Virus record (IMG/VR): IMGVR_UViG_3300032050_010539
Length of the DNA: 64,000 nucleotides
Strand: one strand, 5' to 3'
Source: a virus
Below the pieces are notes generated by a model that did no database searches, had not been told where the DNA came from, and saw only the letters and a list, made by a program, of their open reading frames with translations. Each line of letters starts with the position of its first letter. Within the stretch, counting starts at the first letter, position 1. Below are positions 21,955 through 50,676 of the stretch, piece by piece. The translations under genes were made by a program, and so were the position numbers.

Positions 21955-22205
21955 TATCCCTCCGTTGGGGAGTGGTATCGACTACTTTCGCAGCTCGAGT
22001 ACCATAGGCCCTCCCCAACGGAGTGGCTAGAGCAGCTAGTGCAGCTATAGTAGTTATCACGACTAGTGCGACACAAGCCCCTCTGTTGGGGAGTGGCACT
22101 GGCTACTTTCGCAGCTCGAGTACCATAAGCTCCTCCGTTGGGGAGTGGCTAGTATAGCTATGGTAGCTATCGCGACAATAGCTCTTCTGAAAGGGAGTGG
22201 CTAAT
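21955..22205. repeat. array of five CCTCCGTTGGGGAGTGG(CTA)-like repeats separated by hairpin spacers
   Basis: GAGTGG at ~21970, 22021, 22091, 22143, 22195. Confidence 0.8.
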
Positions 22206-22421
22206 GAAACTAACGCAGCTCTTGCTGGGTGCTTAGGGAGTACGCATAACAGATAGTTTATTGCCACCGCTAATAGAGTTCGCCGTCACGGGCATAAGCC
22301 GCCGCTAGTAACATTCGCTGTCATGAGCAATATTAGATACTACCTATCATATGGAGGGAAGAGCTCCACTAAAAGAAAAAGGGGCCAGGTGGCCCCCAGG
22401 GGTCATATGACCCCATTGTAA

Positions 22422-25400
22422 TTAGAAATCAGGATGATCTTCAGCTTCAGCGAGTTCTAGTTTATAGTCGCCGAGGTCGAGATGTACAACAGTTGCGATT
22501 TCCAACAGCTGCTTAAGTTGAGGGTTCCTGACATAGTTAGAGAGTTGGAACTCACTTACCATGTCGAACACACTAACGGGGACGATATCATCAGCGCCAT
22601 AACTGGCTGCGTCATCCTGGGTCATAGGAACCACAGGATCATGGCCCTGGCCAGTACGACGGAAGGCTCCGTATATGGCAGATGACATGATAAGGCTCTC
22701 GCGAGCGAAGTTGCCCCGTTCGAGAGCACCGTATGTGAGAGTACGGGCGCGGGCCTTTATAAGCTGGTAGATTACCGCGGGCTCCTTAGCCAGCTTAGCG
22801 GGCATAAGGTCAGCCATAGCCCGAGCAGGAGGTACACCACCTCCTTGGCGATCCGTATCCAAAAGCTTAGTGGAATTGGCAGAGTAGTATAACCCGTCCT
22901 GCGACGACTTATACATAGGTACGCCAGCAGCCCAGGCGCGGGCTGCTTGCACTAAAGTAGCCATGAAGATCTTAGCCTCAGGGGTATAGCCCCCGAGACC
23001 CATGCTTTCATAGACGAAACGCCAGGCGATAACACACGCTTTAAGTGCGTCGGTATCGACGCCGCTAGCACGGTACATACTATCCCAGGTTTGGAAGGCA
23101 AGTGCAGAACAGATACCATAGCCAACACCTACGGCTACTTTATAATGCGTGTGCACCTCAGCAGCGTCGCTGACGTACTTATCGACAGCGATAGCAGTAG
23201 CTACAGGCTTATCCCACTTAGTGAGGGATTTCTTGCCTATCTTATCTTCATAGCTCATGAAGGCGAAGAACGGCAGGTCATCTGCTTCGTAGCAGTAGAA
23301 GTAGCCGCCTATGCCCATGAGACTAGCATTGATAGTGAGGGCACTCTCAGCGTCGATACCGTATTTGTGAGCATTAATGCCGCCGCACTGGTCACCATCA
23401 GCATCGCCTTCGTTAACGGCGTGCCATAGGAGAGGGTTGACTGTGTAGTGTGCGACGAAGGCATCGGTAGTAGATAACTTAACGCGGCCGCATAGGACGA
23501 AGCCCATAGGAGTCCGTTGTATCCCAATAACCTGACCTTCTTCGATGCCAAGCATACGTACCATAGGGCAATTGGGGTGCATGAGAATTACAGGCACGCC
23601 ATCAGCGCTATGGAGCAAGGGGCTATAGCTGGTCTTGACCTTACCAACGACCACATCGCCAGCGCGGGCCATACTCTTCATAATGCCTTTGGATTTAACC
23701 ATGGTGTTACACCATGTGCGTAAACCGCGGCTGACCTTAGCGGTCATGGAGTAGATTTTACTATCCAAACCGCTTTGGTCTTCAATTCCTACATCAGTAA
23801 CGTAGGCCAACAGTGTCAAGAGGTCTAGCATAATACCAGTAGCGGAGGCGCCAGAGAAGGTACCGAACGCGCTTAGGGCCTTACCATTGATATGAAGAGA
23901 GACTTCATTACCGTTATTCTGAGCAACGATATCCACTCCATCGGGGTAGACGGTAGCAAAACGATCTAGCAGATTGCGGTCACTGCCAGGGGTGCTATCA
24001 GAAACATAGTTGTTAACTACGCCGATAATGTCCCGTAGATGGTCACGCCCCTCAGTAGTGCTGATGTTAATACAAGCATCACATTCCTTAGATGTGATCA
24101 TACTAACTATGGACATGACGTTATCGTATTTAACCTCCTCCATGAGCGCTTCGCCCCAACCGCGGTTCTGTAGAGCCACAATACCTATCTGCTCCATAGT
24201 CATTTTGGAGAATGCTACGGACTCACGAGGAGTGGCTATCTCGATATCGTATGGCAGATAGCCGTATATAACCTCTACTGTTTCTTCGATACGGACGCTG
24301 GTATCGTCGATGTCGATTACCTTGATGTCATCGTTAGTTACTACGGAGGAGATGGAATCCCACAGGTCGCGGGCCATATCAAAGGAGATGACCTCTTTAA
24401 CACTGGCTCCAGTATCATCAGTAGCCAGTTTGGCTTGAGCCCACTCAGTAAAGGTATTACTCTTAGTCATAAGATCAATAACTTCACCAGTATCATCGAT
24501 GGTGAGAAGCGCACCTTCGGGAGTATAGGTGCAGCCCCCCTTCTCAATGGCGAACATCTCTATGAGCGCGGGCCATCCCTTGGTGGTCTCGTTATTTAGG
24601 ATGATATCCCAGGGTTGAGATAGTCCCTCAACGTCATAGGGAAGAGTGGTAAGCTTCTTACCTAGACCGCGGAGTTTGAGGGCTTGGTCGCGCCCCACCA
24701 TCTCGGTCTCAAGTCGAATAGTGACGCTATCAGCGCGGCCCTCGACGCCATTACGCGTGACAGTCCCGCCTATTACGCGGATGTCCTGCGCGAATGTCTC
24801 GTTCTTCACTATGCAGTACTTGCCCTGCATAATGCTAATGATAGAGTTACCAGGAGCATAAACCTGGCCCTTCGCTTTCTCTATCTTGCCTTCGATGACT
24901 TCCATGAGTTTACTCGTGGGGTCATCTAGATCAGCAGCCATAAGAGCGCGAACTGAGCTAGGAATACGGAGTACGTGAAACTCCTTAGTAATGGTCTTCG
25001 GTACGGTGTATTCGAACTCAAGGTCGCGGCGTATAGCAGCAACACCACTGCCAAAGCCAAAGCGGCTATTGGTGAATGCGGTGCGTAGATAGAGGCCACC
25101 ACCACAACTATAGTTACCATCACCTAAATCAACGCGAAGTAGACTATCACGACGATCTATAATCTCAGCACGAGTGTATTTACCCGAGCTAGGCGGACGG
25201 TTGTACACCTTAGTGGGCTTGCTAAAATCATGGATGGAGTATATCTTACTATCCTTAAGTCCGAGGAACATGGCCTTGGCACCCTTACCTACAGCGATCC
25301 ATTTTGCATTGTATTTATCAGGTGCTGCTATGACATTGGCTTTGAGCGACAATTCAAGATCGCTGGGTGCGAGGCCAACGTTCTCCACTTGCAGGAAGGG

Positions 25401-27518
25401 GAAGGCCTTATCCCAAGGCTTGAACGCTACAGGACGGGACATACAGCGATTAATCTCAAATAGAGATTGACCCTCTTTAGGCTGAGCGCCGTAGTTGATG
25501 TCCTCGCGCCACAGGTTAGTTACCTCATTGAGGATAGCACGCGCACCAGTGGCGTTATACGCTACCTTCATACAGAGCGCCACAAGGGCTACACGACCAC
25601 TGTAGTCTTTGCCTCCGACTTTAACGAGTTCATTAGCGATGCGACTCTGACGACCATCATTGACGCTACCTGTACTAAAGTTGAAAGTAGTGCTGCGGTT
25701 ATTACCTTTGATAACCACACAGGGGCCCTCAACACTAACAGTACGATGCTGCTTGACACATAGACAGCCTACAAGAGCGGCTAAATCGTCACCAGACCAC
25801 GTGGCTAACTTAGTGAGGAAGTGCTCACTATACATGCTAACTAAGCATTCGGTCTTAGTAGTATAGGTATGCTTGTCGTCTTCATAGGGAATAGACTTAG
25901 TTACACCTAAGTTAATGACCTTAGGATTCATTTTAGAATCCGTGGTGTAAACAACCCGATGGTCTAGAAGCGCAAGGAACTTCTTACACATACGGTTGTA
26001 ACCAGATACGACATAGAGAATCGGACCTTCAGGCAGAAGGTCGAAGTTATTAGCCCCAAACAAGCGGGTTAACTCTTTACGAGCTGCTGTGATGCGCGCC
26101 TCCTGCTTAGGAGACACGACTCCACCGAGAGTACTAGGGTCAGGAATTAACATCTCGATAATGCTCTTCATGGTAGTGCTAGTGTTGGTGGTATTGTTAG
26201 AGGAGCTATCACTCTCTAACCCCTTAGTAGGGGCTCCTATGTTAGAGAGCGGGTGGGTAGGAGTTACTGCTGCGGGCGCCGCACCAATAAGACCATCAAT
26301 TGCTTGAATGGTTAGCGCAACAGCATTATCGTTGTTGACACTATTGTTAAAGACAAATTCCCAGTCTAATAACGTATTAGTGTCATCATATCCAACGGCT
26401 TCAGCATATTCGCCATAGGTTTTATAATCGAGTACGCGATCATCGAGACCTACGACTTCACGACAAATCGCAGGATCTAAACTATCTACTACATCCATCC
26501 ATATATCATCAGGACCAGGTGCCCCGCTTTCTACAAACGCGGTCATGAGGTAGTGAGTGCATAAGAGGCGGGCCACTAATGCCGGGTCGTACATAAGCAG
26601 AGCTGCTTCGTATTCGTCGTTCTCGTGTTCAGTACCTTCGTAGTAAGATTTAGTGTCATGCCATTGAGCCGAGCCCGCGCCAATAGCGGCCTCAGACACC
26701 AGAGCTATATCTAGGTCTTCAGTAAGACCTAGAGCTTGGCAGTGGTGGACAAGCTCGTGAGTTATCGCGTATATATCTTCGAATGAAGGTACAGTAACGA
26801 CATTGTCACAATAAGACGCTATGTCCCCTTGTACAAAGGTCACACCGCATAGTTTGCCTACGATTCTCATGCGGCAAGCCAGTACATCACTTGGTAATTC
26901 TGGTACTACAACGCTCATACAGCGTTTAACGCGTGCTGCTTTATCAGTAGCTTTAGCAGCTTTAGTTATCGCTAAAACGGCTTTAGCGTTTTTAGTTTTG
27001 TACTTCTTGCCTACACACGTGCGGCCGTTGCCGCGGTAGTTTACGCGGCCTTGGTCGAGGGCAGCGATAATACTATCAGCAGCATTATTTACGGTAGCAA
27101 CGGCTTTAGCGCCGGTGCTAATAGAACGCGAGGGACGCGCAAATACTGCGCTGACAGCGCGCAGTATAGGTTTGGCCTTACGTTGTCGTAAGACAAGTTT
27201 GTCTACGACGTTACGGTTACGTAATACGGGTTTGCGGGCGGCTGAAGCTGCGGCAGCTGCGGCACGACGTAGCGCACGTCGTGCTGATTTTACAACGCAG
27301 GGACGTTGACTTTGAGGTAGAGAGCGGATGGGGCGGCCGGCTGACGCTATACGACGAGAGCGACGGCGTACTACGCGATTAGCGCGACGGCTCGCTATCT
27401 GCTGAGCGCGGCGACCAGGGCCTACACGTCGTGTAGTAGGAGCACCTGCGATGATAGCGACGCTGATAGAGGCTACGAGAATATTGGATTGAAAGACGAT
27501 AGAGTTGATGGTACTCAT
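22422..27518 (-). CDS. single-chain double-psi beta-barrel DNA-dependent RNA polymerase with N-terminal basic region and HExxH zincin-like domain
   Basis: catalytic-like NEGDADGDQ (23391-23405) preceded by VIGIQRTP; beta-like KLRGLGKK...WDIILNN (~24590-24680); HELVH (26745-26759). Confidence 0.78.
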   Translation of the reverse strand: MSTINSIVFQSNILVASISVAIIAGAPTTRRVGPGRRAQQIASRRANRVVRRRSRRIASAGRPIRSLPQSQRPCVVKSARRALRRAAAAAASAARKPVLRNRNVVDKLVLRQRKAKPILRAVSAVFARPSRSISTGAKAVATVNNAADSIIAALDQGRVNYRGNGRTCVGKKYKTKNAKAVLAITKAAKATDKAARVKRCMSVVVPELPSDVLACRMRIVGKLCGVTFVQGDIASYCDNVVTVPSFEDIYAITHELVHHCQALGLTEDLDIALVSEAAIGAGSAQWHDTKSYYEGTEHENDEYEAALLMYDPALVARLLCTHYLMTAFVESGAPGPDDIWMDVVDSLDPAICREVVGLDDRVLDYKTYGEYAEAVGYDDTNTLLDWEFVFNNSVNNDNAVALTIQAIDGLIGAAPAAVTPTHPLSNIGAPTKGLESDSSSNNTTNTSTTMKSIIEMLIPDPSTLGGVVSPKQEARITAARKELTRLFGANNFDLLPEGPILYVVSGYNRMCKKFLALLDHRVVYTTDSKMNPKVINLGVTKSIPYEDDKHTYTTKTECLVSMYSEHFLTKLATWSGDDLAALVGCLCVKQHRTVSVEGPCVVIKGNNRSTTFNFSTGSVNDGRQSRIANELVKVGGKDYSGRVALVALCMKVAYNATGARAILNEVTNLWREDINYGAQPKEGQSLFEINRCMSRPVAFKPWDKAFPFLQVENVGLAPSDLELSLKANVIAAPDKYNAKWIAVGKGAKAMFLGLKDSKIYSIHDFSKPTKVYNRPPSSGKYTRAEIIDRRDSLLRVDLGDGNYSCGGGLYLRTAFTNSRFGFGSGVAAIRRDLEFEYTVPKTITKEFHVLRIPSSVRALMAADLDDPTSKLMEVIEGKIEKAKGQVYAPGNSIISIMQGKYCIVKNETFAQDIRVIGGTVTRNGVEGRADSVTIRLETEMVGRDQALKLRGLGKKLTTLPYDVEGLSQPWDIILNNETTKGWPALIEMFAIEKGGCTYTPEGALLTIDDTGEVIDLMTKSNTFTEWAQAKLATDDTGASVKEVISFDMARDLWDSISSVVTNDDIKVIDIDDTSVRIEETVEVIYGYLPYDIEIATPRESVAFSKMTMEQIGIVALQNRGWGEALMEEVKYDNVMSIVSMITSKECDACINISTTEGRDHLRDIIGVVNNYVSDSTPGSDRNLLDRFATVYPDGVDIVAQNNGNEVSLHINGKALSAFGTFSGASATGIMLDLLTLLAYVTDVGIEDQSGLDSKIYSMTAKVSRGLRTWCNTMVKSKGIMKSMARAGDVVVGKVKTSYSPLLHSADGVPVILMHPNCPMVRMLGIEEGQVIGIQRTPMGFVLCGRVKLSTTDAFVAHYTVNPLLWHAVNEGDADGDQCGGINAHKYGIDAESALTINASLMGIGGYFYCYEADDLPFFAFMSYEDKIGKKSLTKWDKPVATAIAVDKYVSDAAEVHTHYKVAVGVGYGICSALAFQTWDSMYRASGVDTDALKACVIAWRFVYESMGLGGYTPEAKIFMATLVQAARAWAAGVPMYKSSQDGLYYSANSTKLLDTDRQGGGVPPARAMADLMPAKLAKEPAVIYQLIKARARTLTYGALERGNFARESLIMSSAIYGAFRRTGQGHDPVVPMTQDDAASYGADDIVPVSVFDMVSEFQLSNYVRNPQLKQLLEIATVVHLDLGDYKLELAEAEDHPDF

Positions 27519-27577
27519 GGTTAGTGGTAATATAGGGCCACTAAAGGAAAAAGGGGCCCTGCTTGGGCCCCTTTTTA

Positions 27578-28318
27578 TTAGTCAAGTAGATCGTTGATGT
27601 CGATGTCGACTGATAGGTCAGCCGGCACTTCCCAATCAGTAGCAGTATCATCAGATGCTACTACTGACTTAGCAACAGTACCTGGCTTAGATACTATTGC
27701 TGCAGTATCTCGTGCAGCCTTAGCAGCCTCCCGTTTGCGTTTGCGGGCGGCCGCTTTACTATGTAACTGTTCCGTAGTTACCACGTTAGATTTTGCCGTT
27801 CCCTCAAACCCGTCTAGTATAGACGGGTCTATTTTCGGACGGACAACTTCCCGATGAAGTTGGATTTCCGCACCTTCAAGGTGAAAGTACTGGGTTATTG
27901 TGCCCTTGTATTCCGTTTCGCGTCCAACGCGGAGGTCTTCCGCGCTGAAGCTAACTTTTACACACCCCCACGAGCTGTCCCACCCGTCTTCAAAATCTGT
28001 AGATAACTCTACAGACATTATCACGTCATCGCTGGCGTCTCCGGAGAGAAGCTTTACAAACTCGGCTGTAGATAAGCTACGGCCATCGGAGGTAGTGAGA
28101 GGTACCTCTCCGTTTTTACTGGATATCAGCCGGAACTCCAGCCAGTAGCTAGACCCATCCAGGCGGCGCTTGATAGCGCCATTGTGCACGTAAGTAACAA
28201 CGCCAGGCTTAGTGCTGGCAGAGCGACTTACGTTAAGGGTAAATACGTAGTTTTTGGAGTTGGTGGGTTGGTTAGAGGCTTGATTAGAGGCCTGGTTGTC
28301 GTTGTTGTTGTTTCTCAT
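27578..28318 (-). CDS. hypothetical protein with acidic C-terminal tail (SSB-like architecture)
   Basis: start MRNNNND follows the motif; ends VDIDINDLLD. Confidence 0.7.
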   Translation of the reverse strand: MRNNNNDNQASNQASNQPTNSKNYVFTLNVSRSASTKPGVVTYVHNGAIKRRLDGSSYWLEFRLISSKNGEVPLTTSDGRSLSTAEFVKLLSGDASDDVIMSVELSTDFEDGWDSSWGCVKVSFSAEDLRVGRETEYKGTITQYFHLEGAEIQLHREVVRPKIDPSILDGFEGTAKSNVVTTEQLHSKAAARKRKREAAKAARDTAAIVSKPGTVAKSVVASDDTATDWEVPADLSVDIDINDLLD

Positions 28319-28485
28319 TGTGTATACTTGGGTGTATAGGACTACTAAAAGAAAAGGGGCCAATTGCTGGCGTACTTAACGAACTCAGGTGCTGAACTTC
28401 ATTCCTCTTCTTTTTAAGGCGCTATCATTTAAAGACGAGGGGCCCGCCTCTATCTTGAATAAGAAGTAGAGACGGGCCCATAGTA

Positions 28486-28593
28486 TTACCCTATTAGAGT
28501 AATAATCTCCAAATCACCATCTGGTGCAACATACCAGCGATGACCATTGAGGTCTAGATGACATGCCGGCCCATTTACAGACCGACGCTGAAT
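28486..28593 (-). pseudogene. start-less paralogue of the 49-aa gene at 29439..29588
   Basis: RBS AGGAGG directly followed by IQRRSVNGPACHLDLNGHRWYVAPDGDLEIITLIG*. Confidence 0.6.
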
Positions 28594-28617
28594 TTACCTC
28601 CTAGAATAAATGTTTAA

Positions 28618-29376
28618 TTATTCAGGTAAATCTACAGCGGGAGCCCAACCTGCTTCTAACATCGACACGTAATCGATGTCGGGATGGTAGTCCCGTCCAA
28701 CATAAACTCCTTTACCCCGCTGGTAGCGGCAGAGGGGTAATGGCACGTACTTAAGAGGCCGAATGAAGGCATAGTTACCCTCATTCCAGGTAGCCACCTC
28801 CCAGTAAGTAGCCCACTCAGGAACTACCTCCGTTGTGGGTACCTCTACTTCCCACACGGTCGTGAAGGCACGACCAGGATTGAGCTTGACCAGATCCTTT
28901 TCACAGATAATTAGCTCTCTTTTATTTTTCTCGTAGAAGACCTCTATACCTACCTTCTTGGCCAGAGAAGATATTGCACTCGCTAGACGAGGCGAACAGG
29001 GTAGCTTTAGGAAATAAGAGTTGGGATTGAAGTTCCACGTGTCACGACACTCCACCTTAATCGTGTCGGGACCTACCGCCAAAATGCGGTAGTTGAAGTT
29101 ACCGATGGCCCCCTTTAAAGAAGACCACCAACCGTTTTCTATATTTATGTCCACGAAAGTAACTAGAGAGCGGCGGCTTACCCCTTCGTCCTTAAGACGA
29201 GCCTTGAGGTTTCGTATTACCGCATCGCGTGTCTCAGCGATGTCGGCTTCAGATAGAGTCGGGGGCTGGGAACCTCCCATGAAATAGTACGAGATGAACG
29301 CCCACGTCGTTGGGTGGACGTAGACGCCCGCTGCCTGTAATGCGGCGTAGATTGACGCTGCTAGGATTTTATACAT
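28618..29376 (-). CDS. hypothetical early protein
   Basis: 252 aa; motif + AGGAGG. Confidence 0.8.
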   Translation of the reverse strand: MYKILAASIYAALQAAGVYVHPTTWAFISYYFMGGSQPPTLSEADIAETRDAVIRNLKARLKDEGVSRRSLVTFVDINIENGWWSSLKGAIGNFNYRILAVGPDTIKVECRDTWNFNPNSYFLKLPCSPRLASAISSLAKKVGIEVFYEKNKRELIICEKDLVKLNPGRAFTTVWEVEVPTTEVVPEWATYWEVATWNEGNYAFIRPLKYVPLPLCRYQRGKGVYVGRDYHPDIDYVSMLEAGWAPAVDLPE

Positions 29377-29438
29377 GTGTCCTCCTGGGACTAAAATTCA
29401 CCAGAAGGAAAAAGGGGAGCTATATACTCCCCATAGTG

Positions 29439-29588
29439 TTAGTCTATTAGAGTGATGACCTCGAAGTCACCATCTGGTAGAACATACCAGCGGTGACCAT
29501 CCAGGTCTAGATGACATGCTGGCCCATCTACGGACCGGAGTTGAATCGTTTGATGATTTAATTGAAGATAAGTGTGATAAGGGGACAT
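29439..29588 (-). CDS. small early protein (49 aa, MSPYHTYLQLNHQTIQLRSVDGPACHLDLDGHRWYVLPDGDFEVITLID)
   Basis: translated by hand; motif + AGGAGG; has a paralogue. Confidence 0.7.
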   Translation of the reverse strand: MSPYHTYLQLNHQTIQLRSVDGPACHLDLDGHRWYVLPDGDFEVITLID

Positions 29589-29797
29589 GGATTTACCTCC
29601 TAGAGTAAATATTCACTAGAAAGAAAAGGGGAGTGGGCCCTCCTGAGTATTAATTGATTACATAGATGCACTTAGCGTCTATGTAATCGAGTGAGTGGAA
29701 CCACAGCCGTGACTCCACTCAGGTAGCGTAGGCATCCCATTTACTCTGAGGAGTATTCGATTAATAGACTCCTCAGTAACTAGGACTTTATACCCTA

Positions 29798-30313
29798 TTA
29801 CTTTAACCAGCTTAGATCTAGCTGGTAGTGAAAGAGCTTGTCACTCTTCTCTATTGTCTCAAACATCTCATAGAGGCACTCCTCGAGATGATCTCGGTCC
29901 ACCCGGCTAGTCAGGCCGAGCCCCTCCCAGGTAGGCTGAGGGGGTTTAATCTCCACCAAGCAGGTCTTGGCGATGCCAACAGCCAGACGAAGACTATCGG
30001 TACTATAAAGCTGGCCCAGCTTCTTATATACCGCCTCGGCATCGGTAGTAAGCTGAAGAGCCCATAATTCCCCAGTATACTGGCAGACTATTACGTCCAC
30101 CTTGTATACCCGGTCTAGGACTCCCCAATCATCAGTGGGGACGAGACGACGAAGGACACCGCCTCGGGAGTTGAGCTCTAGATGCTTATTCGCGAGCTCA
30201 TGGGCGGCGTTATACAAGTAACCCTCCCCCCATACCTCACGGGGCTTGGGACATTTAAAACCTAATTCTTCAATCACACGCAACACTACTTTCTCCATTT
30301 GTAGACCATTCAT
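29798..30313 (-). CDS. hypothetical protein, possible PD-(D/E)XK-like nuclease
   Basis: LDRVYKVDVIV...WALQLT; motif + AGGAG. Confidence 0.6.
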   Translation of the reverse strand: MNGLQMEKVVLRVIEELGFKCPKPREVWGEGYLYNAAHELANKHLELNSRGGVLRRLVPTDDWGVLDRVYKVDVIVCQYTGELWALQLTTDAEAVYKKLGQLYSTDSLRLAVGIAKTCLVEIKPPQPTWEGLGLTSRVDRDHLEECLYEMFETIEKSDKLFHYQLDLSWLK

Positions 30314-30379
30314 GATGTACTCCTAGGATTATAAACTACTAGAAGGAAAAAGGGGCCTGCCCAGGCCCCTTAACTACTA

Positions 30380-30511
30380 CTATTTGTCTACCTTACATAG
30401 TGAGGTAGGTAGAGGCCCATAACAGGCCTCATGGTATACTCCACCAATGATGGCACCGCATGTGCCAAGAATTACCGCAATAGCTGCTATGTAAGATAAT
30501 GTGTATTTCAT
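30380..30511 (-). CDS. small membrane peptide (43 aa, MKYTLSYIAAIAVILGTCGAIIGGVYHEACYGPLPTSLCKVDK)
   Basis: translated by hand; own motif and AGGAGG; paralogue adjacent. Confidence 0.75.
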   Translation of the reverse strand: MKYTLSYIAAIAVILGTCGAIIGGVYHEACYGPLPTSLCKVDK

Positions 30512-30573
30512 AATCCCTCCTAGGGTTATAGATCACTAGAAGGAAAAAGGGGCCTGGGCAGGCCCCTTAACTA

Positions 30574-30708
30574 CTACTCTTTGTCTACCTCGCACGCCGT
30601 CACGGGGTAGTTACTGTGACAAATGCCTACGTATACTCCACCAATGATGGCAGAGCATGTTAGTAAAACGGCACTGACAGCAATAACAATTGATAGTTTA
30701 GTATTCAT
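30574..30708 (-). CDS. small membrane peptide (44 aa, MNTKLSIVIAVSAVLLTCSAIIGGVYVGICHSNYPVTACEVDKE)
   Basis: translated by hand; own motif and AGGAGG. Confidence 0.75.
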   Translation of the reverse strand: MNTKLSIVIAVSAVLLTCSAIIGGVYVGICHSNYPVTACEVDKE

Positions 30709-30789
30709 AATACCCTCCTTGGGTATAAAGATCACTAAAAGAAAAGGGGCTACGAGGCCCCTTTTCTTTTATTTCATGTCCAGATACTC

Positions 30790-30927
30790 CTAACGTACAG
30801 ATGGTATGTTTTGACCGTCTCCACGGCTAGGTAATTGATTAGTTATTACCGGATTAGTTATTACCGTTATGAAGATGACGGGAATTATAACTATGGATAC
30901 TACTAATGTTAATGCTAATGATTTCAT
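30790..30927 (-). CDS. small membrane peptide (45 aa, MKSLALTLVVSIVIIPVIF...)
   Basis: translated by hand; own motif and GGGAGG. Confidence 0.65.
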   Translation of the reverse strand: MKSLALTLVVSIVIIPVIFITVITNPVITNQLPSRGDGQNIPSVR

Positions 30928-30987
30928 AATCCCTCCCGGGTTAATAGTTCAATGAAAGAAAAAGGGGCACTGTGCCCCTTCTATCAA

Positions 30988-31311
30988 CTACTTAACAAGG
31001 ATGTAGTTGATGTCGAACTGGAGTATATCCTCCTCCGTCCATCGTTCTCCTTCTGCCAACCGCCGAGGGCTGACAAATAAACATACAATATACTCGGCCC
31101 CTGGGGGCACCTGTACCCGATTCACGGGTACGGTTACTCCGAGACGGGCGGAGAGTAGCTCCGCCGTAGAGAGGTGCCCTATAGCACTTGTCCAGTCAGT
31201 AATGGAGAGGAGAGCGCGGGCCTCTTCCTCTGAAATACAAGTGCTGGTTATAACCCCACCTGGTGTGGTGGGGTACAAAGAATTGGGAAAAGAGTTCAAA
31301 ACGTAAAGCAT
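30988..31311 (-). CDS. acrIII-1: AcrIII-1 (DUF1874/STIV B116-like) cyclic-oligoadenylate ring nuclease
   Basis: LYVLNSF, SAIGHLSTA, VPVNRVQV, RRLAEG match the family's N-x-F, GH, NR and RL-x-EG motifs; 107 aa from ATG 31311 with GAGGAG RBS. Confidence 0.88.
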   Translation of the reverse strand: MLYVLNSFPNSLYPTTPGGVITSTCISEEEARALLSITDWTSAIGHLSTAELLSARLGVTVPVNRVQVPPGAEYIVCLFVSPRRLAEGERWTEEDILQFDINYILVK

Positions 31312-31492
31312 AATCTCCTCCTTAGAGATAAGGTTCACTACGAGGAAAAAGGGACCCGAGGCCCCTCCTTATCTACTCTACTTATTTAGCTCCGCTCACT
31401 CACGGTGGAGCTTCGCTATTTCCTGCTTTATCTGTTCCATCTCGCGGCGTAAAGCCACGAGATTAATAACAGGAGCGGGGAGGCGTTGTTGA

Positions 31493-33463
31493 TCAGTTAT
31501 GACTGATCACATAGACGCGCTTAGCATCCGTATACCCTTTGTAATCTTGTGGTAGAAGAGACCCTCCTACTTTAAGTACCTTGCCCCATGCGGCGAGGGC
31601 ACCATAAAGATCCCCGTTTGCTCCGAGGAGCACCCGGTTGACGAAGGCACTATAGAGATCCCCACTTTCTCCCATGATCACCCCTTCGATGAACCACATC
31701 TTAAGAATCTTCTGGGCTATCTCTTCGTAGAGAAGAATAACCGTGGGCTCTCGTTGCTCTAGCCCAAGTGCTTCGCAATTGTCGAAGCACAAATCCCCGG
31801 ACTTGTTAATCCAGGTCCAGGACTGGGCTATTATGGTTCCTATATCATCTTCAAATACGAGGAATCCAGAATTGGGCTTTTCTTGCCCATACCAAGCGCA
31901 GGCCCCCCCATCTCCGTCTGGGTGCTGACAACAGTTGGTATATTCACCGAGGAAGAGCCCTCGCGTATCCTCCCGGGGGAGGAAGTACGCCCGTATTCCA
32001 TCCCGGGTTGCACTAATCCCCGGGAGGAAGTTGGGTTGTTGTAGGGAACGTATAAAACGCCCCTCGTAGTACTCGAAATCCCGGGTAGATACGCCCCAAT
32101 TGGCGCACTCAAAAGCAAACTCTTGGTGCTTAATATTTGTGTACTTACGTACTTTACATGCCGTCACTAGTTGACGGAATGGCAGAGAGCGCTCCTCTGT
32201 ATTTAGTTTGTGCCAGACTCGGCATATTAAGCCGAGTTCAGAAACTGAGGTAGAGCGCTGGCGTAGGCGCTCCCCCTGTGCGAATAGAAACTCGCTCAAT
32301 CCCTGCCCGCCGAGGGGTAACCAGTAGGTGGCGTCATGCTCGCTGTAGCCGAGCTTGGCCATCTTACTGAGCCACTCCTCAGAGCGGCCTCCAAAAGTAA
32401 CCACCAATGGGACAATGTACTCTAGAGGATTCTCACGTAGCAATAGCTTATTAGCTGCTGTTACCTTCAAGGTAGGTATATGCCCGCCCTCCCCAAATAT
32501 AGTTTCTTCGTTTTCTTTAAAGGCCTTGAGCAGAGGGCGCTCAATAGCACAACTAAGTTCCCCGTACAATTTACGGAGGGCTAGGCGCTTGTGCCCATTA
32601 AGCCACAGGTACTGAGCTATGGCCGTGCGCCCCAAGTGGCACACCTCATTAAAGCGCTGCCAGAACGCATTAACGCGTTCGGTACGGGAACGGCGGCGTG
32701 CCCGATCCCATTGTTTCCCCTCCTCTTTCCAGATGACCCCAGCAAGGGCTCGGAGGTCTGGGCGGGACTTGTACAGAGTTCCCAGCCGTACAGCCAGAGA
32801 CTTAGGAATCTCTGTATTGTACTTCCACACGCTCGCAGCTGGGATTAGATCCCAGACGTTACCAATGCGGGTGGAAACAGGCATACGAACTAGTACACGC
32901 TTAACCCAAATGGGTAAGCGGTTATAGTTCGGGGTGCATGCTACTGCCAATACCGTACTGTGGTCTGGTTGGTAACCAGAGTTCCATACCCGCCCAGGGG
33001 CGCGGACACCCTCCCATAGAGGGAGAAAGCGCTTTACTTCCCACCAGTGTTTAACACCTAGATCTACTAGGCGTTCAGCTAACTGAGGAGTTCTTAGCTC
33101 CTCGAACCAAATTCCCTCTTTCTCGTAGGGGAGTTTAATACCTTCGTTTAAATGAAGGTATCGGATAAGGCGGAGGCGCACTTTATTTGCTTCCTTTGCC
33201 TCCTCCAAGGCTACTTCTCGGGTGATGACCCGAGAGATAATCCAGCGCTGGGAGCTAGATAGACTATTCCACTCCTCCCATTCACTCCAGGGAGTGAATG
33301 GATTGAGTTCCAGCCACTCCCGGAACTCAAGTAAAACGTTATAAAGAGAGAAGTAGTAGGGAGCGGGGTCAGCTCCCAACTCAGCTCCCAACTCCCACTC
33401 AAAGGAGTAGGCAAGCTGAATACGGCCCGCTTTGGTTTTGGCAGATTTGATAAACTTAGACAT
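31493..33463 (-). CDS. large hypothetical early protein with C-terminal PcfJ-like/GNAT-like domain
   Basis: LFLGEYTNCCQH..G.GGAC...SGFLVF...IIAQSWTW...LCFDNCE pattern. Confidence 0.65.
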   Translation of the reverse strand: MSKFIKSAKTKAGRIQLAYSFEWELGAELGADPAPYYFSLYNVLLEFREWLELNPFTPWSEWEEWNSLSSSQRWIISRVITREVALEEAKEANKVRLRLIRYLHLNEGIKLPYEKEGIWFEELRTPQLAERLVDLGVKHWWEVKRFLPLWEGVRAPGRVWNSGYQPDHSTVLAVACTPNYNRLPIWVKRVLVRMPVSTRIGNVWDLIPAASVWKYNTEIPKSLAVRLGTLYKSRPDLRALAGVIWKEEGKQWDRARRRSRTERVNAFWQRFNEVCHLGRTAIAQYLWLNGHKRLALRKLYGELSCAIERPLLKAFKENEETIFGEGGHIPTLKVTAANKLLLRENPLEYIVPLVVTFGGRSEEWLSKMAKLGYSEHDATYWLPLGGQGLSEFLFAQGERLRQRSTSVSELGLICRVWHKLNTEERSLPFRQLVTACKVRKYTNIKHQEFAFECANWGVSTRDFEYYEGRFIRSLQQPNFLPGISATRDGIRAYFLPREDTRGLFLGEYTNCCQHPDGDGGACAWYGQEKPNSGFLVFEDDIGTIIAQSWTWINKSGDLCFDNCEALGLEQREPTVILLYEEIAQKILKMWFIEGVIMGESGDLYSAFVNRVLLGANGDLYGALAAWGKVLKVGGSLLPQDYKGYTDAKRVYVISHN

Positions 33464-33614
33464 AGAATTGTCCTCCTGGGACTAAAATTCACCAGAAGGA
33501 AAAAGGGGCCCGCAGGCCCTATTATTAATGCTATACCATCATCTACTTGAAGCAAATGATATCAATACCCAAGAGGATCGAGCATCCCTATATTAGTTGG
33601 AATGGATAACCTCT

Positions 33615-33794
33615 GGGTGGGGGAGGGGGTATACCCTATAATACACCAAAATACCGCCAGCAAATATCGAGAATCTAAGAGCTCTAGGTATTAATACGTA
33701 TATAGTTTAATACCGCCAGCAGGAGGGTGGGGGAGGGGGTATACCCTATAATACACCAAAATACCGCCAGCAAATATCGAGAATCTAAGAGCTC
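33615..33794. repeat. 70-bp perfect direct repeat x2 at the strand-switch point
   Basis: 33615-33684 = 33725-33794 (GGGTGGGGGAGGGGGTATACCC...AAGAGCTC). Confidence 0.95.
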
Positions 33795-33849
33795 AGTAAT
33801 AAGCTGTAGAGGTATGGCAGTATGGAGCAGTTATATAGGAGGTAATGAT

Positions 33850-34476
33850 ATGTTAAAGGACATCAAAGGAACAGTGAAGATAGAGGACCTAAGTGAAGAG
33901 CAAATAAGAGAATTACAGAGGAGGCTAGGGATACAGCAGACAGGAATAATGGGGCCAATGACGAGGAAGGCCTGGGAGGACTGGAAGAGGAGTAAGGGTA
34001 TGGGGGAACCGGGGTTAATAGGGCCGGGTTCTATAGGTCTATTACTAGAGGAGATAGACTGGACGGATATGACGAGTAAGGTAAGCAAGTACTTTACTGT
34101 GGGAGAGGTAACGAAGCGGCAGGCGGCGCGCATACCAACGAGTAAGGTCATCCAGGACAATATAGTGAGACTAGCTAAGGAGTTAGATAAGGTAAGGGAG
34201 GAGTGGGGTAAGCCCATTATAGTAACGAGTTGGTATAGGCCCCTCGCGATTAACAGGGCAGTAGGAGGAGTGGATAATAGTCAGCATATAGAGGGGTTAG
34301 CGGTAGACATAGTGCCCATAGACCCCGTCGAACTAATCGAGTTCGAGAGGTGGTTAGACGAACATTGGTACGGTCCGCTGGGGTGGGGGGCCCAGAGTGG
34401 GAGGGGCTTCACGCACCTAGGGTTAACGAAAGGGTGGAGAGCAGGAGGAAAGAAGGGGCCCCGCTGGAGATACTAA
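33850..34476 (+). CDS. endolysin: peptidoglycan-binding domain + peptidase M15A
   Basis: SKYFTVGE, PIIVTSWYR..NRAVGG..SQH..GLAVDI, FTHL; AGGAGG before ATG 33850. Confidence 0.9.
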   Translation: MLKDIKGTVKIEDLSEEQIRELQRRLGIQQTGIMGPMTRKAWEDWKRSKGMGEPGLIGPGSIGLLLEEIDWTDMTSKVSKYFTVGEVTKRQAARIPTSKVIQDNIVRLAKELDKVREEWGKPIIVTSWYRPLAINRAVGGVDNSQHIEGLAVDIVPIDPVELIEFERWLDEHWYGPLGWGAQSGRGFTHLGLTKGWRAGGKKGPRWRY

Positions 34477-39192: not shown

Positions 39193-39948
39193 TACTACTA
39201 GATAAGCTAGCGCCACTAGATAAGGTGAAGTTAGAGGAGTTGGAGCCAGAGGACATGTGCCAGCTCCTACATTTATATTACCTAGATACACCAACTGATA
39301 TAGATATCCTTAGGATTAGAATAAGTAAGAGATTACTACGTGGAGTTAACCGTACCTATCTTCAGCACCTTAAGCTACTATATGTTTACTTAGGACACTA
39401 CCTTAAGAAATCAGGAGTTATACGTTGATTTATATATCAATTACATTCTCACAGCATCAGTCCCTTGATTGGTCACATACAGTAGGAGAGGATGCCTTTG
39501 GCTGGCTACAGACAGCGGGGGAGGATAATATTATAGTAGAGAAGTTAGAACCATACGAGGCAGTACTAGCTATAGAAGATGATATAGCGGATAATATAGG
39601 ATATATATGCGCCATGCTAATAGAGTACGGCGTAGTAGAATTTAATGTTCACGTAAGTCCTACTCAATTAGCATGGTAACACTCTCAGACTACAAACTCA
39701 CATACGAGATAACATCACTACCGACTATAATATTCGCTGGGATGACCGCGGCGGATGAGCCATTTCACTTCACTCGCTTTGAGGTGCCCCCCATTAATGG
39801 TCCTATCGAGTGCCGCTTTTCACTATTCGATAAGTCAGGTAATTTAATAGAGTTATCTAATCAATATGTGCACAGTACTACGCTAGTGGCTACCTGCAAT
39901 ATAGTGCCACTGCGTATGATAGAGAAGCTAGTTAAACCAGATCCATAG
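39180..39948 (+). CDS. three coupled small hypothetical genes (39180..39428, 39425..39679, 39673..39948)
   Basis: overlapping stops and starts. Confidence 0.6.
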
Positions 39949-42900
39949 AGTAACTCTCACTCTCATCTCGATAGGCCATACTATTAGGACGATCTACTGT
40001 TAGGTCGCTCATGTAGAGGGCGTCATAGGTGTCGTATTCATCACCATTGAATATAGTTTGTACGAAGAACTCAACAGGGGAGCCCGTGTCATCTACGACC
40101 TCGGTTTCAGCATTATCCTCTCGTTCCATGCGAGCTCGATTCATACCTTCTTGAGTAGCGCGTATACCAGCACTAACAGCGTCTAGAGCCGCGGGGGCTA
40201 CACTACGCTGCATACTGACCTCTAACCCACGATGAAGTAACTTATTTACGAAGCCTGCTGATACGAGACTCAATGCCCCCGTGATGACGTTGCTAGCTAC
40301 ATTACGCAGGCCCGCGAATGGGTCAGAGTCTATTGTGGGCGCCTTACCGAGTGTCTTCTCTACGAATGGGTTGATAATATAGCGGCCTGCGAGTTGAGCT
40401 GTTGCGCCAAAGGCTATCTCCTGTGCTAGTAGCATACCGACACCAATTGTATAGTCCTCGTGTAGTTGACCTGCTAGGCGGCCCTTGAATCCCATACTCA
40501 TCAGAGTACCTGCAGCGAAACGTCCCATCTGGTTACCTGCTGGGGCGCTTACGTAGGCCATAGCGCCTAGCATATTACCCATAGTCTGCTGCATTGCCTC
40601 GGGGCGGGCTCCGCCACTACTAATCATATCTCCTGCCAGTGCCATTAGGGGGAATAGAAGTACATCCATTAGATTACCGGCAGTATTGTTAAGAATAGGT
40701 AGATCATCTGCTACGCGTAAGAGGGGGCGGTCTGGTCGCGGGCGAGGGTCTAGTGGGTCTACATCAGGGGGTGAGCCGGCCAGTAGATAGTCGCGCCGAC
40801 GAGCTGATAACTCCTTAGCTCTATCTGGGGCGACCCCCATATCCTGTAGCAGTTTTATATAGCGCGTATCGACGTCACGGCTCTCATAATCTCGTAGCTC
40901 CTCTACTAGTCTATCGGCTGTATCTACCTGCTGACCTAGTGCTGTAGCGCGAACATAAGTAACTAATCGACTAGTGGCTGTCTCATCTGTGAGAACTGTC
41001 TTCTGAATAAATTCTGCTATCTCCTTATCAGCTGGGCTAGGGGTACCGCTATTGAGTAACACACTAAAGATATCTGCTATTTCATAGCGCTTACCATCAG
41101 CGTGAGTGAAGGTATCCATAAGAGACTCGAGGGCCCGTGTTACCTGCTCAGGCTCGTTTATCTTCCCGGCTGATACAGCCTGTAACAGTGATCTAACTAG
41201 CGGACTAGCTCCTGAGCCAGTAAGGTCACCAGCGGTAGTAATCAGATCCTGACCGAGTACATCCTCTAGTTGTCCTCCGTATAGTGTGGAGCGGGTACTA
41301 TCATTAATAGCGAAGCGCAGTAGTTTACTGCCATCAGTATTAGCCCAGAGTGATGCACTCTCCCTACTACGTAGGAAGTTCATAGCTAATATACGCTTAG
41401 TATCCGTACCCATATCCTGGAAGCGCTTATCTCCTATTACATCACGAGTGAAGTTCTGGAACTCTTCTACTTCTATCTCCATCTCGGTGAGGCCATTAGT
41501 GATGCCGCCTGCTATGAGAGTATCTATCTGAGCGGCCCGCGCGGGCTCACTATTTATGTAGGTCTCTACACTCTCTGCTAGGCCTCTACCAGAGCTAATG
41601 GGGTTACCTGCCTTATCGGTTGGCATAGCCCGCTCGAAGGCGAATACAGCCGTCATACCTACTAGGTCCTGACGTAGTTGATAACTGGCTATGAGGGCGC
41701 GGCTATGAGTACCTATTTCATCTCCTCGCAGTACGCTCAATCGACGAGATAAATCTAACTGCTCAGTTTCTCCAATGGATAGCTTAGTCAGCAGATCATT
41801 AATCTTAGAGTCCTGGGCATCATTAGTAGCTGATGCCAGTAATTCTTTATGAGCCCCTATATACGCATCTAACTTGAATAGAGGAGTTATAGATGGTAGT
41901 AGTCTACTCATATCATCTACTACACGCTGGCGCTCCACATCATCGACAGCATCTACAAAGCGCTTATGGTACTGCGATAAGTTCTCTAGGAACTCAGCAC
42001 CCCCCATCTTAGGCTTAATAGCGTCCCGCAGCATTTGCTGTATCTCTTGTAGGAATGTGCCTACCTCGCCTACCTCTGTTCTACTCTGGCGGGCCAGTCT
42101 CTGTATATCCACTATCTTACTATCGGCCTCTAGGTTAACATCACTCGCGCTCATGCCTCCTGCCATACCCTGATCGATTAGTATACGACGCATGTCATCC
42201 TGTAGGGCCGAGCTATTCTCTAGTGCGTGAGACACAGCCATGATGGGGGAGCGCTCGTATAGCATACCCACGGTAGTGTTATACGTCTTACCGAGGATTA
42301 CACTACCTGCCTGGCCCAGTACCTTCTGCATCATATCGAATTGGCCGCCGCTCATGACACTACCATCAGCGCGCTTCATGTACTTGCTGAGATTATCGCG
42401 GGCATTAACAGCAGTTAGTTTATGCAGGAAGTCATAGGCCTTCTCTTCCTGATCATTACCTGTAGCGCTCAGGATATCATGTAGACTAGCCCGCACGAAT
42501 GGCCCCGTATCAGGGTTATTAACAAGATCGGTTAGTATGTTCTGATCCGTAGAGGTAGATAATCTATTGACTATATCAACTGCACTATCAGTTCTGCTCT
42601 GCTGTATTAATTCTAATAAGGGCTCATGGGCCGGCTGTATACGCGCGTATACGTCCTCCATCATACCGAAGAGACCGCGGGACTGTTCTACTAATACCAG
42701 GGCATGTTCTATACCTCGCTGTTCCAGCATACCCTTATCTAATTTCATATAGCCCGCTACCCAGCTATACACTGAGTCGGTATACTCATTCCAATTAGCA
42801 TTAGTGGCTACCTGCTGTATAGTATCCAGTAGAGCACTGGCACGCATATCTAGGTCATTAGCTTGCTTCTCTAGAATGGTGCGCTTAGCGGGATCAGCAG

Positions 42901-50548: not shown

Positions 50549-50676
50549 CAGTAGAGTACAAAACCTATTAAATAGAGCTATAGCTGAAAAACTGCCTACT
50601 TTAGCGGGCAGTGGCCTCATAGGATTATATCAATCAGCTTATCTGATATCTTATAGCACATACATGGAGAGACGTT

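Follow-up and report, generated by a model that had tools for sequence, protein, structure and literature searches.

A Two-Hairpin Unit Repeated Ahead of the Genes of an Array That Includes a Putative RNA Polymerase Gene in a Microcystis Myovirus

The 64,000-nucleotide stretch of the virus record IMGVR_UViG_3300032050_010539, called the window in the following, carries eleven copies of a short hairpin-containing unit on its minus strand between 22367 and 33519. Ten of them lie shortly ahead of a start codon, the last of these being that of a predicted phage RNA polymerase (RNAP) gene, which raises the question of what such a unit does in front of one gene after another. An earlier note, made from the sequence alone, had read the copies as immediate-early promoters for an injected RNAP, by analogy with the hairpin promoters of phage N4. 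Our analysis indicates that the units are real and functional regulatory cassettes acting at the RNA level and that they form the seams of swappable genes. The reading we favor, with a probability of about 0.55, is that they represent a two-hairpin RNA module within the array transcript, in which a terminator-type hairpin is followed by a hairpin masking the Shine-Dalgarno (SD) sequence of the next gene.

A Repeated Unit in One Gene Block of Ma-LMM01-Type Phages

In a megablast search, positions 22000-34000 of the window matched only Microcystis myoviruses of the Ma-LMM01 group (Fukuivirus), namely MaMV-DH01, MaMV-DC, MaMV-CH01/CH02/DL01/DL02, and Ma-LMM01, with 87-91% identity. Judged from these matches, the window originates from an Ma-LMM01-type (Fukuivirus) Microcystis myovirus. 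Phages of this type predominate among the cultured lytic phages of bloom-forming Microcystis.

The unit has a length of about 55 nt and consists of a GC hairpin, a T-run, and the box TTTTYCYTYTRGTG, with the start codon following 20-26 nt beyond. By a box search and inspection of each site, all eleven copies reported previously were found. With up to two mismatches allowed, the box was matched 16 times in the window compared to 2.47 expected matches and a maximum of 8 in shuffled sequences, and 11 of these 16 matches are located on the minus strand between 22367 and 33503. The GC hairpin ahead of the box is clear in 10 of the 11 copies (ΔG -5.9 to -26 kcal/mol), the copy at 28356 having a stem of 4-5 bp only. 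Ten copies are indeed close to an ATG, at 20-26 nt from the end of the box, and essentially each gene from 33463 to the RNAP gene, including those of 43 amino acids (aa), is preceded by a copy; the array comprises nine genes plus the RNAP gene. The eleventh copy (22380) is located past the 1698-aa RNAP gene and has no real gene directly behind it. The ribosome-binding site of the YAGGAGG type that had been described as usual was confirmed as a strong AGGAGG-type SD sequence in 8 of the 11 copies and is absent from those at 28356, 27552, and 22380. No copies beyond the known ones were recovered when both strands of the window were searched with a covariance model of the box-to-SD unit.

A search of four complete Fukuivirus genomes plus a viral contig revealed 6-12 copies of the box per sequence, located on one strand and within one interval of 8-13 kb. 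This interval corresponds to the block from gp067 to gp064, and the sole match outside it was found in MaMV-DC with one mismatch. A reversed-pattern control gave no matches in these five sequences. The counterparts of gp065-gp067, together with extra genes, are the window genes between 27578 and 33463. An Rfam search with the units revealed no family, the single match (E = 0.94) being noise, and a literature search found no paper on these units or on a polymerase in Fukuivirus phages.

The Box Pairs with the Shine-Dalgarno Sequence of the Next Gene

As RNA, the box UCCUUCU(A/G)G is complementary to the SD sequence of the following gene, C(U/C)AGGAGG(A), the AT-rich loop between both arms having a length of 9-13 nt. 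For evaluating this pairing, 31 distinct units were aligned with MAFFT without fitting to any structure. In this alignment, 86% of the pairing cells were paired, compared to 47-70% when the 3′ partner was slid, and none of 500 shuffles reached the observed pairing or covariation score. An alignment of the units fitted to the model led to the same outcome. When 29 distinct SD-bearing units were folded individually by minimum energy, the variable purine of the box formed a G:C pair in 9 cases and an A:U pair in 15, was unpaired in 5, and was mismatched in none. The mean ΔG of this second hairpin was -10.3 kcal/mol, corresponding to z = -2.6 in comparison to shuffled 5′ arms.

An orthologous pair of first units provides a compensatory double change, with CTAG...CTAGG in MaMV-CH01 and CTGG...CCAGG in the window. 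In addition, G·U pairs are present in the helix of nearly all units, so that the helix has to exist on the sense strand, i.e., in RNA. The box is thus largely explained as RNA, namely as the anti-SD arm of a helix. The conservation past the T-run, previously taken as a sign of a promoter, mostly reflects the 5′ arm of this SD-pairing helix with its compensatory changes.

Hairpin 1 Resembles a Terminator and Not an N4-Type Promoter

The first hairpin has the sequence features of an intrinsic terminator in 10 of the 11 copies, with stems of 5-11 bp followed by T4-5. Its stems vary in sequence with pairing being kept, and its loops of 3-8 nt have unrelated sequences without conserved bases. Among 53 distinct units, the folds contained 50 G·U pairs on the sense strand but 17 on the antisense strand, and the sense fold was the more stable one in 37 of 53 units, in some of them by 7-10 kcal/mol. 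This bias toward the sense strand argues that hairpin 1 is a structure of the sense-strand RNA rather than of the template-strand DNA. In 6 of 10 cases the hairpin begins 2-8 nt past the stop codon of the upstream gene; a position directly past a stop codon is the usual one for a terminator. A ribosome terminating at such a nearby stop codon could interfere with folding of hairpin 1. The proposal that the array is built gene by gene from functional cassettes with a terminator-type hairpin is supported. We also considered that the box might simply be a generic terminator tail. This was rejected because the box is missing from the other terminator-like hairpins of the window, of which there are few good ones.

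N4 promoters are characterized by a 5-7-bp stem and a 3-nt loop centered at -11, with a purine at -11, G at -10, and G at -8; their hairpin is formed by the template strand of the DNA and serves a T7-like single-subunit RNAP (PMC4496689). According to the N4-type explanation, the GC hairpin would be extruded from supercoiled DNA and be recognized by an injected virion polymerase. The position of a hairpin shortly upstream of each gene and the presence of a giant polymerase-like protein (see below) are common to N4 and the phage studied here. The similarity ends there, because the units have neither a fixed 3-nt loop nor conserved bases in loop or stem, and the sense-strand G·U wobbles and the covariation among relatives would place A·C mismatches into a template-strand hairpin. 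Furthermore, the polymerases encoded by the phage are of the two-barrel type and not T7-like, and in Ma-LMM01 the genes that follow the units do not belong to the early class (see below). With its defining features absent, the N4 analogy is largely refuted as a DNA-hairpin promoter reading, which we consider very improbable, and the units are probably not N4-style immediate-early promoters.

The statement that no space is left for a sigma-70 promoter between hairpin and ribosome-binding site holds, as no -35/-10 pair fits there. A promoter scan of the region 14.5-34.4 kb gave 21 sites compared to 26 expected ones and none within the units. TATAAT sometimes occurs in the AT-rich loop of hairpin 2, at a variable spacing from TAGTG. 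A host sigma-70 promoter inside the unit was therefore rejected as a general explanation, there being no -35 region and no enrichment in the scan.

The absence of a gene upstream of the first copy had been used as an argument against a terminator. There is indeed no gene upstream, but promoter-like duplicated units are located there, so that the first copy can sit in a leader RNA. The two identical 49-nt copies (33615-33663 and 33725-33773, minus strand) contain TTGCTG-N17-TATAGG followed by a C-rich run and lie upstream of element 1 in a divergent region; their homologue is the gp067 promoter predicted by Morimoto. A sigma-70-like match (TTGATA-16-GATGAT, 9/12) is present at 33538-33565 on the minus strand, about 20 nt upstream of the first hairpin.

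The Units Are Probable Seams of Gene Exchange among Relatives

When the window block was compared to seven relatives by blastn, 23 of 42 distinct ends of homology blocks were located within 35 nt of a box center, compared to 6.9% expected (p = 3e-16). The gene content of the array varies among relatives, and the order of the cassettes is permuted between the window and MaMV-DH01: the 656-aa gene is the first one in the window and stands behind nine units in MaMV-DH01. A chimeric structure is seen in the first unit of the window, in which the hairpin half matches the first unit of Ma-LMM01 and the SD half the MaMV-DH01 unit ahead of the 656-aa-type gene. These comparisons suggest that related phages exchanged genes at the units.

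A comparable arrangement is known from T4-type phages, whose PeSLs are composite units of stem-loop, promoter, and SD sequence that mediate modular shuffling (Arbiol 2010, PMC2839356; Comeau 2014, PMC4122927). PeSLs and the units of the window alike are short intergenic repeats with a stem-loop terminator or attenuator and an SD sequence plus start codon at their end, both are clustered in a hyperplastic region of ORFans, and both appear at recombination points for insertion, deletion, or replacement of genes. Like PeSLs, the units described here flank ORFans with a stem-loop and an SD/start region and contain the breakpoints. They differ in lacking a sigma-70 early promoter, which PeSLs possess as a consensus sequence shown to be active, whereas PeSLs have no anti-SD:SD helix, and the array in the window ends in a phage RNAP gene.

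Genes behind the Units Are Middle Genes in Ma-LMM01

In the published RNAseq data of Ma-LMM01, the log2 FPKM values (fragments per kilobase of transcript per million mapped reads) of gp064-gp067 rose from 1.6-2.8 at 1 h to 6.6-7.9 at 3 h and 7.3-8.4 at 6 h (Morimoto 2018, PMC5780444, Table S3), and these genes were placed in class B5, i.e., among the middle genes (PMC5780444). The genes gp054-gp063 form the early class, with log2 FPKM values of 5.4-7.9 at 1 h and 9-12.5 at 3 h (PMC5780444); this cluster begins directly past the last unit. Because the RNAseq study assigns gp064-gp067 to the middle class, the element-bearing genes are not early in this relative, and the immediate-early timing suggested by the earlier note is contradicted for Ma-LMM01 by their low level at 1 h. 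In addition, gp064-gp067 are among the lowest-expressed phage genes (log2 FPKM at 3 h of 6.6-7.9 vs. 10-12 for most middle genes), which fits throttling.

We propose the following mechanism for the two-hairpin module. Hairpin 1 with its U-run would attenuate or end incoming transcription, or cap the 3′ end of the upstream message. The box, mainly as 5′ arm of hairpin 2, would mask the SD site of the next gene and thereby lower its translation. Jointly, both hairpins would insulate each small gene from its neighbors and keep its expression low. Since the unit of about 55 nt is repeated ahead of each gene, it could also serve as site of homologous recombination, by which genes would be inserted, deleted, or reordered among relatives, and such recombination may be the source of the observed shuffling.

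A close precedent is the left end of IS200, which carries a terminator against impinging transcription and an SD-sequestering stem-loop (Ellis 2015, PMC4513863, citing Beuzon 1999). According to this account, a Rho-independent terminator shields the gene and is immediately followed by a second, leader-located inverted repeat sequestering a near-consensus SD sequence. The units have the same succession of a terminator and a leader stem-loop that sequesters the SD sequence, the latter with a compensatory helix. IS200 differs in having a single transposase gene plus an antisense RNA, with a start mapped about 6 nt past the terminator, whereas the module studied here is repeated ahead of 8-17 unrelated phage genes.

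The Phage Encodes Two Polymerase-Like Proteins

The last gene of the array (22422-27518, minus strand), a homologue of gp064, encodes a protein of 1698 aa. A HMMER search with its residues 700-1698 retrieved at least 156 cluster representatives, most of them having 1200-1800 aa and a few about 3000 aa. In an alignment of 36 sequences (21-38% identity to the query, except for one close relative with 94%), K249, K256, K281, R636, P638, and D673-x-DGD677 are invariant in the gp064 family. The 1698-aa protein, with GDADGD at 1372, possesses the lysines of a β-like barrel as well as RxP and DxDGD of a β′-like barrel, as expected for a two-barrel RNAP. The AlphaFold model (predicted local distance difference test, pLDDT, 89.7; predicted template modeling score, pTM, 0.88) had RNAP beta/Rpb2 subunits as top Foldseek matches with probabilities of 0.99-1.0, yet low TM-scores (0.14-0.18), and the virion polymerase (gp66) of the crAss-like phage phi14:2 was also among the matches listed. 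Judged by the model and the conserved motifs, the C-terminal part of about 1000 aa is a single-chain two-barrel RNAP.

The homologue of gp080 (39932-50620, minus strand) encodes a protein of 3562 aa with the motif RSPPPG...GDFDGD, the second part located at 2537. RxP and GDFDGD are invariant in 7 sequences. A direct BLASTP comparison of both polymerase candidates was limited to the DxDGD segment (E = 0.05), and a profile comparison was therefore required. With hhalign, the 3562-aa protein matched the gp064 family over 174 columns covering the catalytic barrel (probability 99.2%, E = 6e-20). A model of residues 1400-2599, based on 7 sequences, was unusable (pLDDT 40.7). We regard the 3562-aa protein as a putative RNAP with a catalytic barrel homologous to that of gp064; it probably corresponds to the injected RNAP postulated in the earlier note, and its location in the virion is putative. 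The claim that the phage encodes an RNAP was thus borne out, with the 1698-aa protein predicted to fold as a two-barrel enzyme and the 3562-aa protein sharing its catalytic barrel. Pfam and PDB sequence searches with both giant proteins gave no matches, a PHROGs search only families of unknown function, and an ESM Atlas look-up no lead.

Ma-LMM01-type phages have been described as devoid of an RNAP and as transcribing all gene classes from host sigma-70 promoters (PMC5780444, PMC9927357). Compared to these descriptions, a hidden gene for a two-barrel RNAP, a two-hairpin control unit repeated ahead of each gene up to the polymerase gene, and the evidence for these units as seams of accessory-gene exchange are new.

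Start Signals and Processing Sites as Alternatives

Several observations weigh against the two-hairpin module as the complete explanation. Three units, namely those ahead of the gp065 homologue and of the gp064 homologue and the one past gp064, lack an SD sequence; their box is richer in T and retains TAGTG or TAGTA. In general, the bulged T and the next G after CTAG are nearly invariant, and their interpretation as a bulge plus one extra pair explains them only partly. Pairing therefore accounts for only part of the box. Moreover, the 3-h FPKM values from gp067 to gp064 in Ma-LMM01 (235, 109, 99, and 181) are flat over five intervening hairpins. This argues against efficient termination without re-initiation, which should cause strong polarity; hence, either termination of the transcribing polymerase at the hairpins is weak, or transcription is initiated at the units as well.

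The distant relatives of the polymerase add a further point of this kind. Contigs with gp064-type polymerases of 25-41% identity contain arrays in which the polymerase gene and small genes lie on the same strand, and most of these array genes have a GGGYC...GRCCC hairpin with a T-rich tail 13-40 nt ahead of the ATG. In L008, L010, L011, L012, L014, and L018, whose polymerases are 26-38% identical, the tail is of the CCCTTATTTTGTA type and without SD pairing, and the units precede genes adjoining the polymerase gene. This type of tail looks like a sequence-specific signal tied to the polymerase. Other distant phages conform to the two-hairpin design: L013, an independent lineage with a 28%-identical polymerase, has a terminator followed by SD pairing with four different complementary arm pairs, and in L015 and L016, inspected by eye, the U-run and the next bases likewise pair with the SD region. 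L014 possesses 12 near-identical units of the GGGYCTTCGGRCCC type followed by TTATTTTGTA, and one stem position of its hairpins occurs as C-G, U·G, and U-A, a series that indicates sense-strand RNA. That distant uncultured phages share this layout next to homologous polymerases points to an expression module of general occurrence. In a more divergent metagenome scaffold (L007, 5316-13717), genes of 1268 aa and 1238 aa with a 219-aa gene between them were observed, the second long gene being a gp064 homologue, and one leader sequence is present ahead of both long genes and of an upstream 246-aa gene.

The flat expression along the block could also be accounted for by processing of one long array transcript, in which the hairpins would be processing or stability signals and not terminators. 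Cleavage in the single-stranded U-run would then provide the upstream message with a hairpin at its 3′ end and the downstream message with one at its 5′ end, as at the RNase III sites located between the T7 early genes. This explanation agrees with both hairpins being sense-strand RNA structures, with the promoter-like units upstream of the first copy, and with the fact that several stems reach into the A-run and T-run, which leaves only a short free U-run, poor for termination. We nevertheless consider it unlikely, since a 5′ hairpin burying the SD sequence would hamper translation of the processed message, and the last copy has nothing downstream to protect.

The composite of a terminator and a promoter is a tentative alternative. 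Here, hairpin 1 would end the upstream transcript and the T-rich box would be a promoter for one of the two-barrel RNAPs of the phage, from which transcription would begin either immediately behind the hairpin, in the manner of IS200, or at the TAGTG purines, each gene being a self-sufficient cassette. With a start at TAGTG, the anti-SD arm would silence read-through transcripts only, comparable to fold-back inhibition of the IS10 type. A promoter in the box would be in line with the flat block expression in Ma-LMM01 despite five hairpins, with the first copy lacking an upstream gene, and with the RNAP homologues encoded by the phage. It would also suit the spacing, since the unit keeps a fixed distance of 20-26 nt to the start codon, whereas it lies between 2 and about 250 nt from the stop codon upstream. 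Promoter function has remained in consideration mainly because hairpin/T-rich units accompany the polymerase in distant lineages: at least six divergent lineages have hairpins with a T-rich tail containing GTA beside homologous polymerase genes, which are themselves located within the arrays that bear the elements. The start of IS200 tnpA, located directly past the terminator, points in the same direction. On the other hand, early expression of the unit-preceded genes is not observed in Ma-LMM01, even though the box is identical in the last unit, which stands ahead of the early cluster. A start at TAGTG would drop the covarying anti-SD arm from the main transcript, the box has no purine ahead of TAG at which transcription could start, and in one relative the tail motif is only 13 nt away from the ATG.

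A parallel for such start and stop signals exists in Thermus phage P23-45, which has two two-barrel RNAPs and whose promoter and terminator motifs were mapped by ONT-cappable-seq and chromatin immunoprecipitation (Chaban 2024, PMC10770324). In this phage, a conserved motif directs the virion two-barrel RNAP to many small pre-early genes and to the gene of the non-virion RNAP, and a 26-nt motif is common to seven termination sites. This precedent adds to the case for the composite. Both phages thus have two two-barrel RNAPs, or candidates thereof, and a block of small genes plus a non-virion RNAP gene marked by cis motifs. They differ in that the block is pre-early in P23-45 and of the middle class in Ma-LMM01, and in that the text of the P23-45 paper contains no hairpin or SD pairing. 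By extension, it is conceivable, at less than even odds, that the units are start and/or stop cis-signals of a large undescribed family of single-chain two-barrel phage RNAPs and the arrays a conserved bootstrapping module. If true, a virion-delivered giant polymerase would transcribe swappable self-contained cassettes, including the gene of the second polymerase, which would overturn the published view that Ma-LMM01-type phages fully rely on host sigma-70 transcription. The units provide a defined set of sites for mapping the starts and stops of the polymerase.

Individual Units and Neighboring Genes

The variable part of the array (27578-33463, minus strand) consists of nine genes bounded by the units, mostly ORFans, three of which encode membrane peptides of 43-45 aa. 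All units described below are located on the minus strand. Element 1 (33461-33519) comprises a hairpin at 33519-33506, a box of the CTGG type at 33503-33490, and the SD arm CCAGGAGG, followed by the ATG (33463) of the 656-aa gene. In element 2 (31309-31370), the hairpin contains a G·U wobble, and the box at 31349-31336 is a CTCGTAG variant with shifted pairing to GAGGAGA. The ATG at 31311 belongs to a gene (30988-31311, minus strand) for a protein of 107 aa of the Pfam family STIV_B116-like (E = 1.5e-12), the sole array gene with a family assignment.

Elements 3 to 5 precede the small peptide genes. The hairpin of element 3 (30925-30981) starts 6 nt past the upstream stop codon and is followed by a degenerate box at 30963-30950 and the ATG (30927) of a 45-aa membrane peptide. 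Element 4 (30706-30764) has a perfect 14-bp palindrome spanning A-run, stem, and T-run, a box at 30746-30733, and the ATG (30708) of a 44-aa membrane peptide. The 9-bp hairpin of element 5 (30509-30568) lies 5 nt past the upstream stop codon; its box at 30547-30534 is of the CTAG type with the pairing partner CTAGGAGGG, and the ATG at 30511 starts a 43-aa peptide. The three hydrophobic peptides of 43-45 aa (30380-30511, 30574-30708, and 30790-30927, minus strand) occupy one cassette each, and two of them are clear paralogues.

Element 6 (30311-30371) again has a 9-bp hairpin, with a box at 30350-30337, the SD arm CTAGGAG, and the ATG (30313) of a 171-aa gene. In element 7 (29586-29643), a weaker hairpin is followed by a box at 29627-29614, the SD arm CTAGGAGG, and the ATG (29588) of a 49-aa gene. 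Element 8 (29374-29432) has a hairpin at 29432-29414 and a CTGG-type box at 29412-29399 that pairs with CCAGGAGG (ΔG -14.5), ahead of the ATG (29376) of a 252-aa gene.

The copy with the short stem of just 4-5 bp, element 9 (28316-28371), has its box at 28356-28343, no SD sequence, and the ATG (28318) of the gp065 homologue, and is kept in all relatives. Element 10 (27516-27575) possesses an 11-bp hairpin 2 nt past the upstream stop codon and a box at 27552-27539, likewise without SD sequence; here TTAGTGG pairs with CCACTAA immediately ahead of the ATG (27518) of the RNAP gene. Element 11 (22367-22414), located past the RNAP gene with no close gene downstream, consists of a tandem double hairpin (22414-22399 and 22397-22380) and a box at 22380-22367.

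Two further regions next to the units were noticed. A cassette remnant at 28372-28617 (minus strand) contains an SD sequence (CTAGGAGGTAAAT) and then a start-less C-terminal copy of the 49-aa gene (29439-29588), with a separate long hairpin at about 28450-28490. At 21960-22210 (minus strand), between the last unit and the homologue of gp063, the first early gene, a short motif of the CCACTCCCCAACGGAGG type is repeated four or five times, with small CTCC/GGAG hairpins. This repeat region is a candidate early-promoter or regulatory region; in Ma-LMM01, 42-bp repeats are present at this position.

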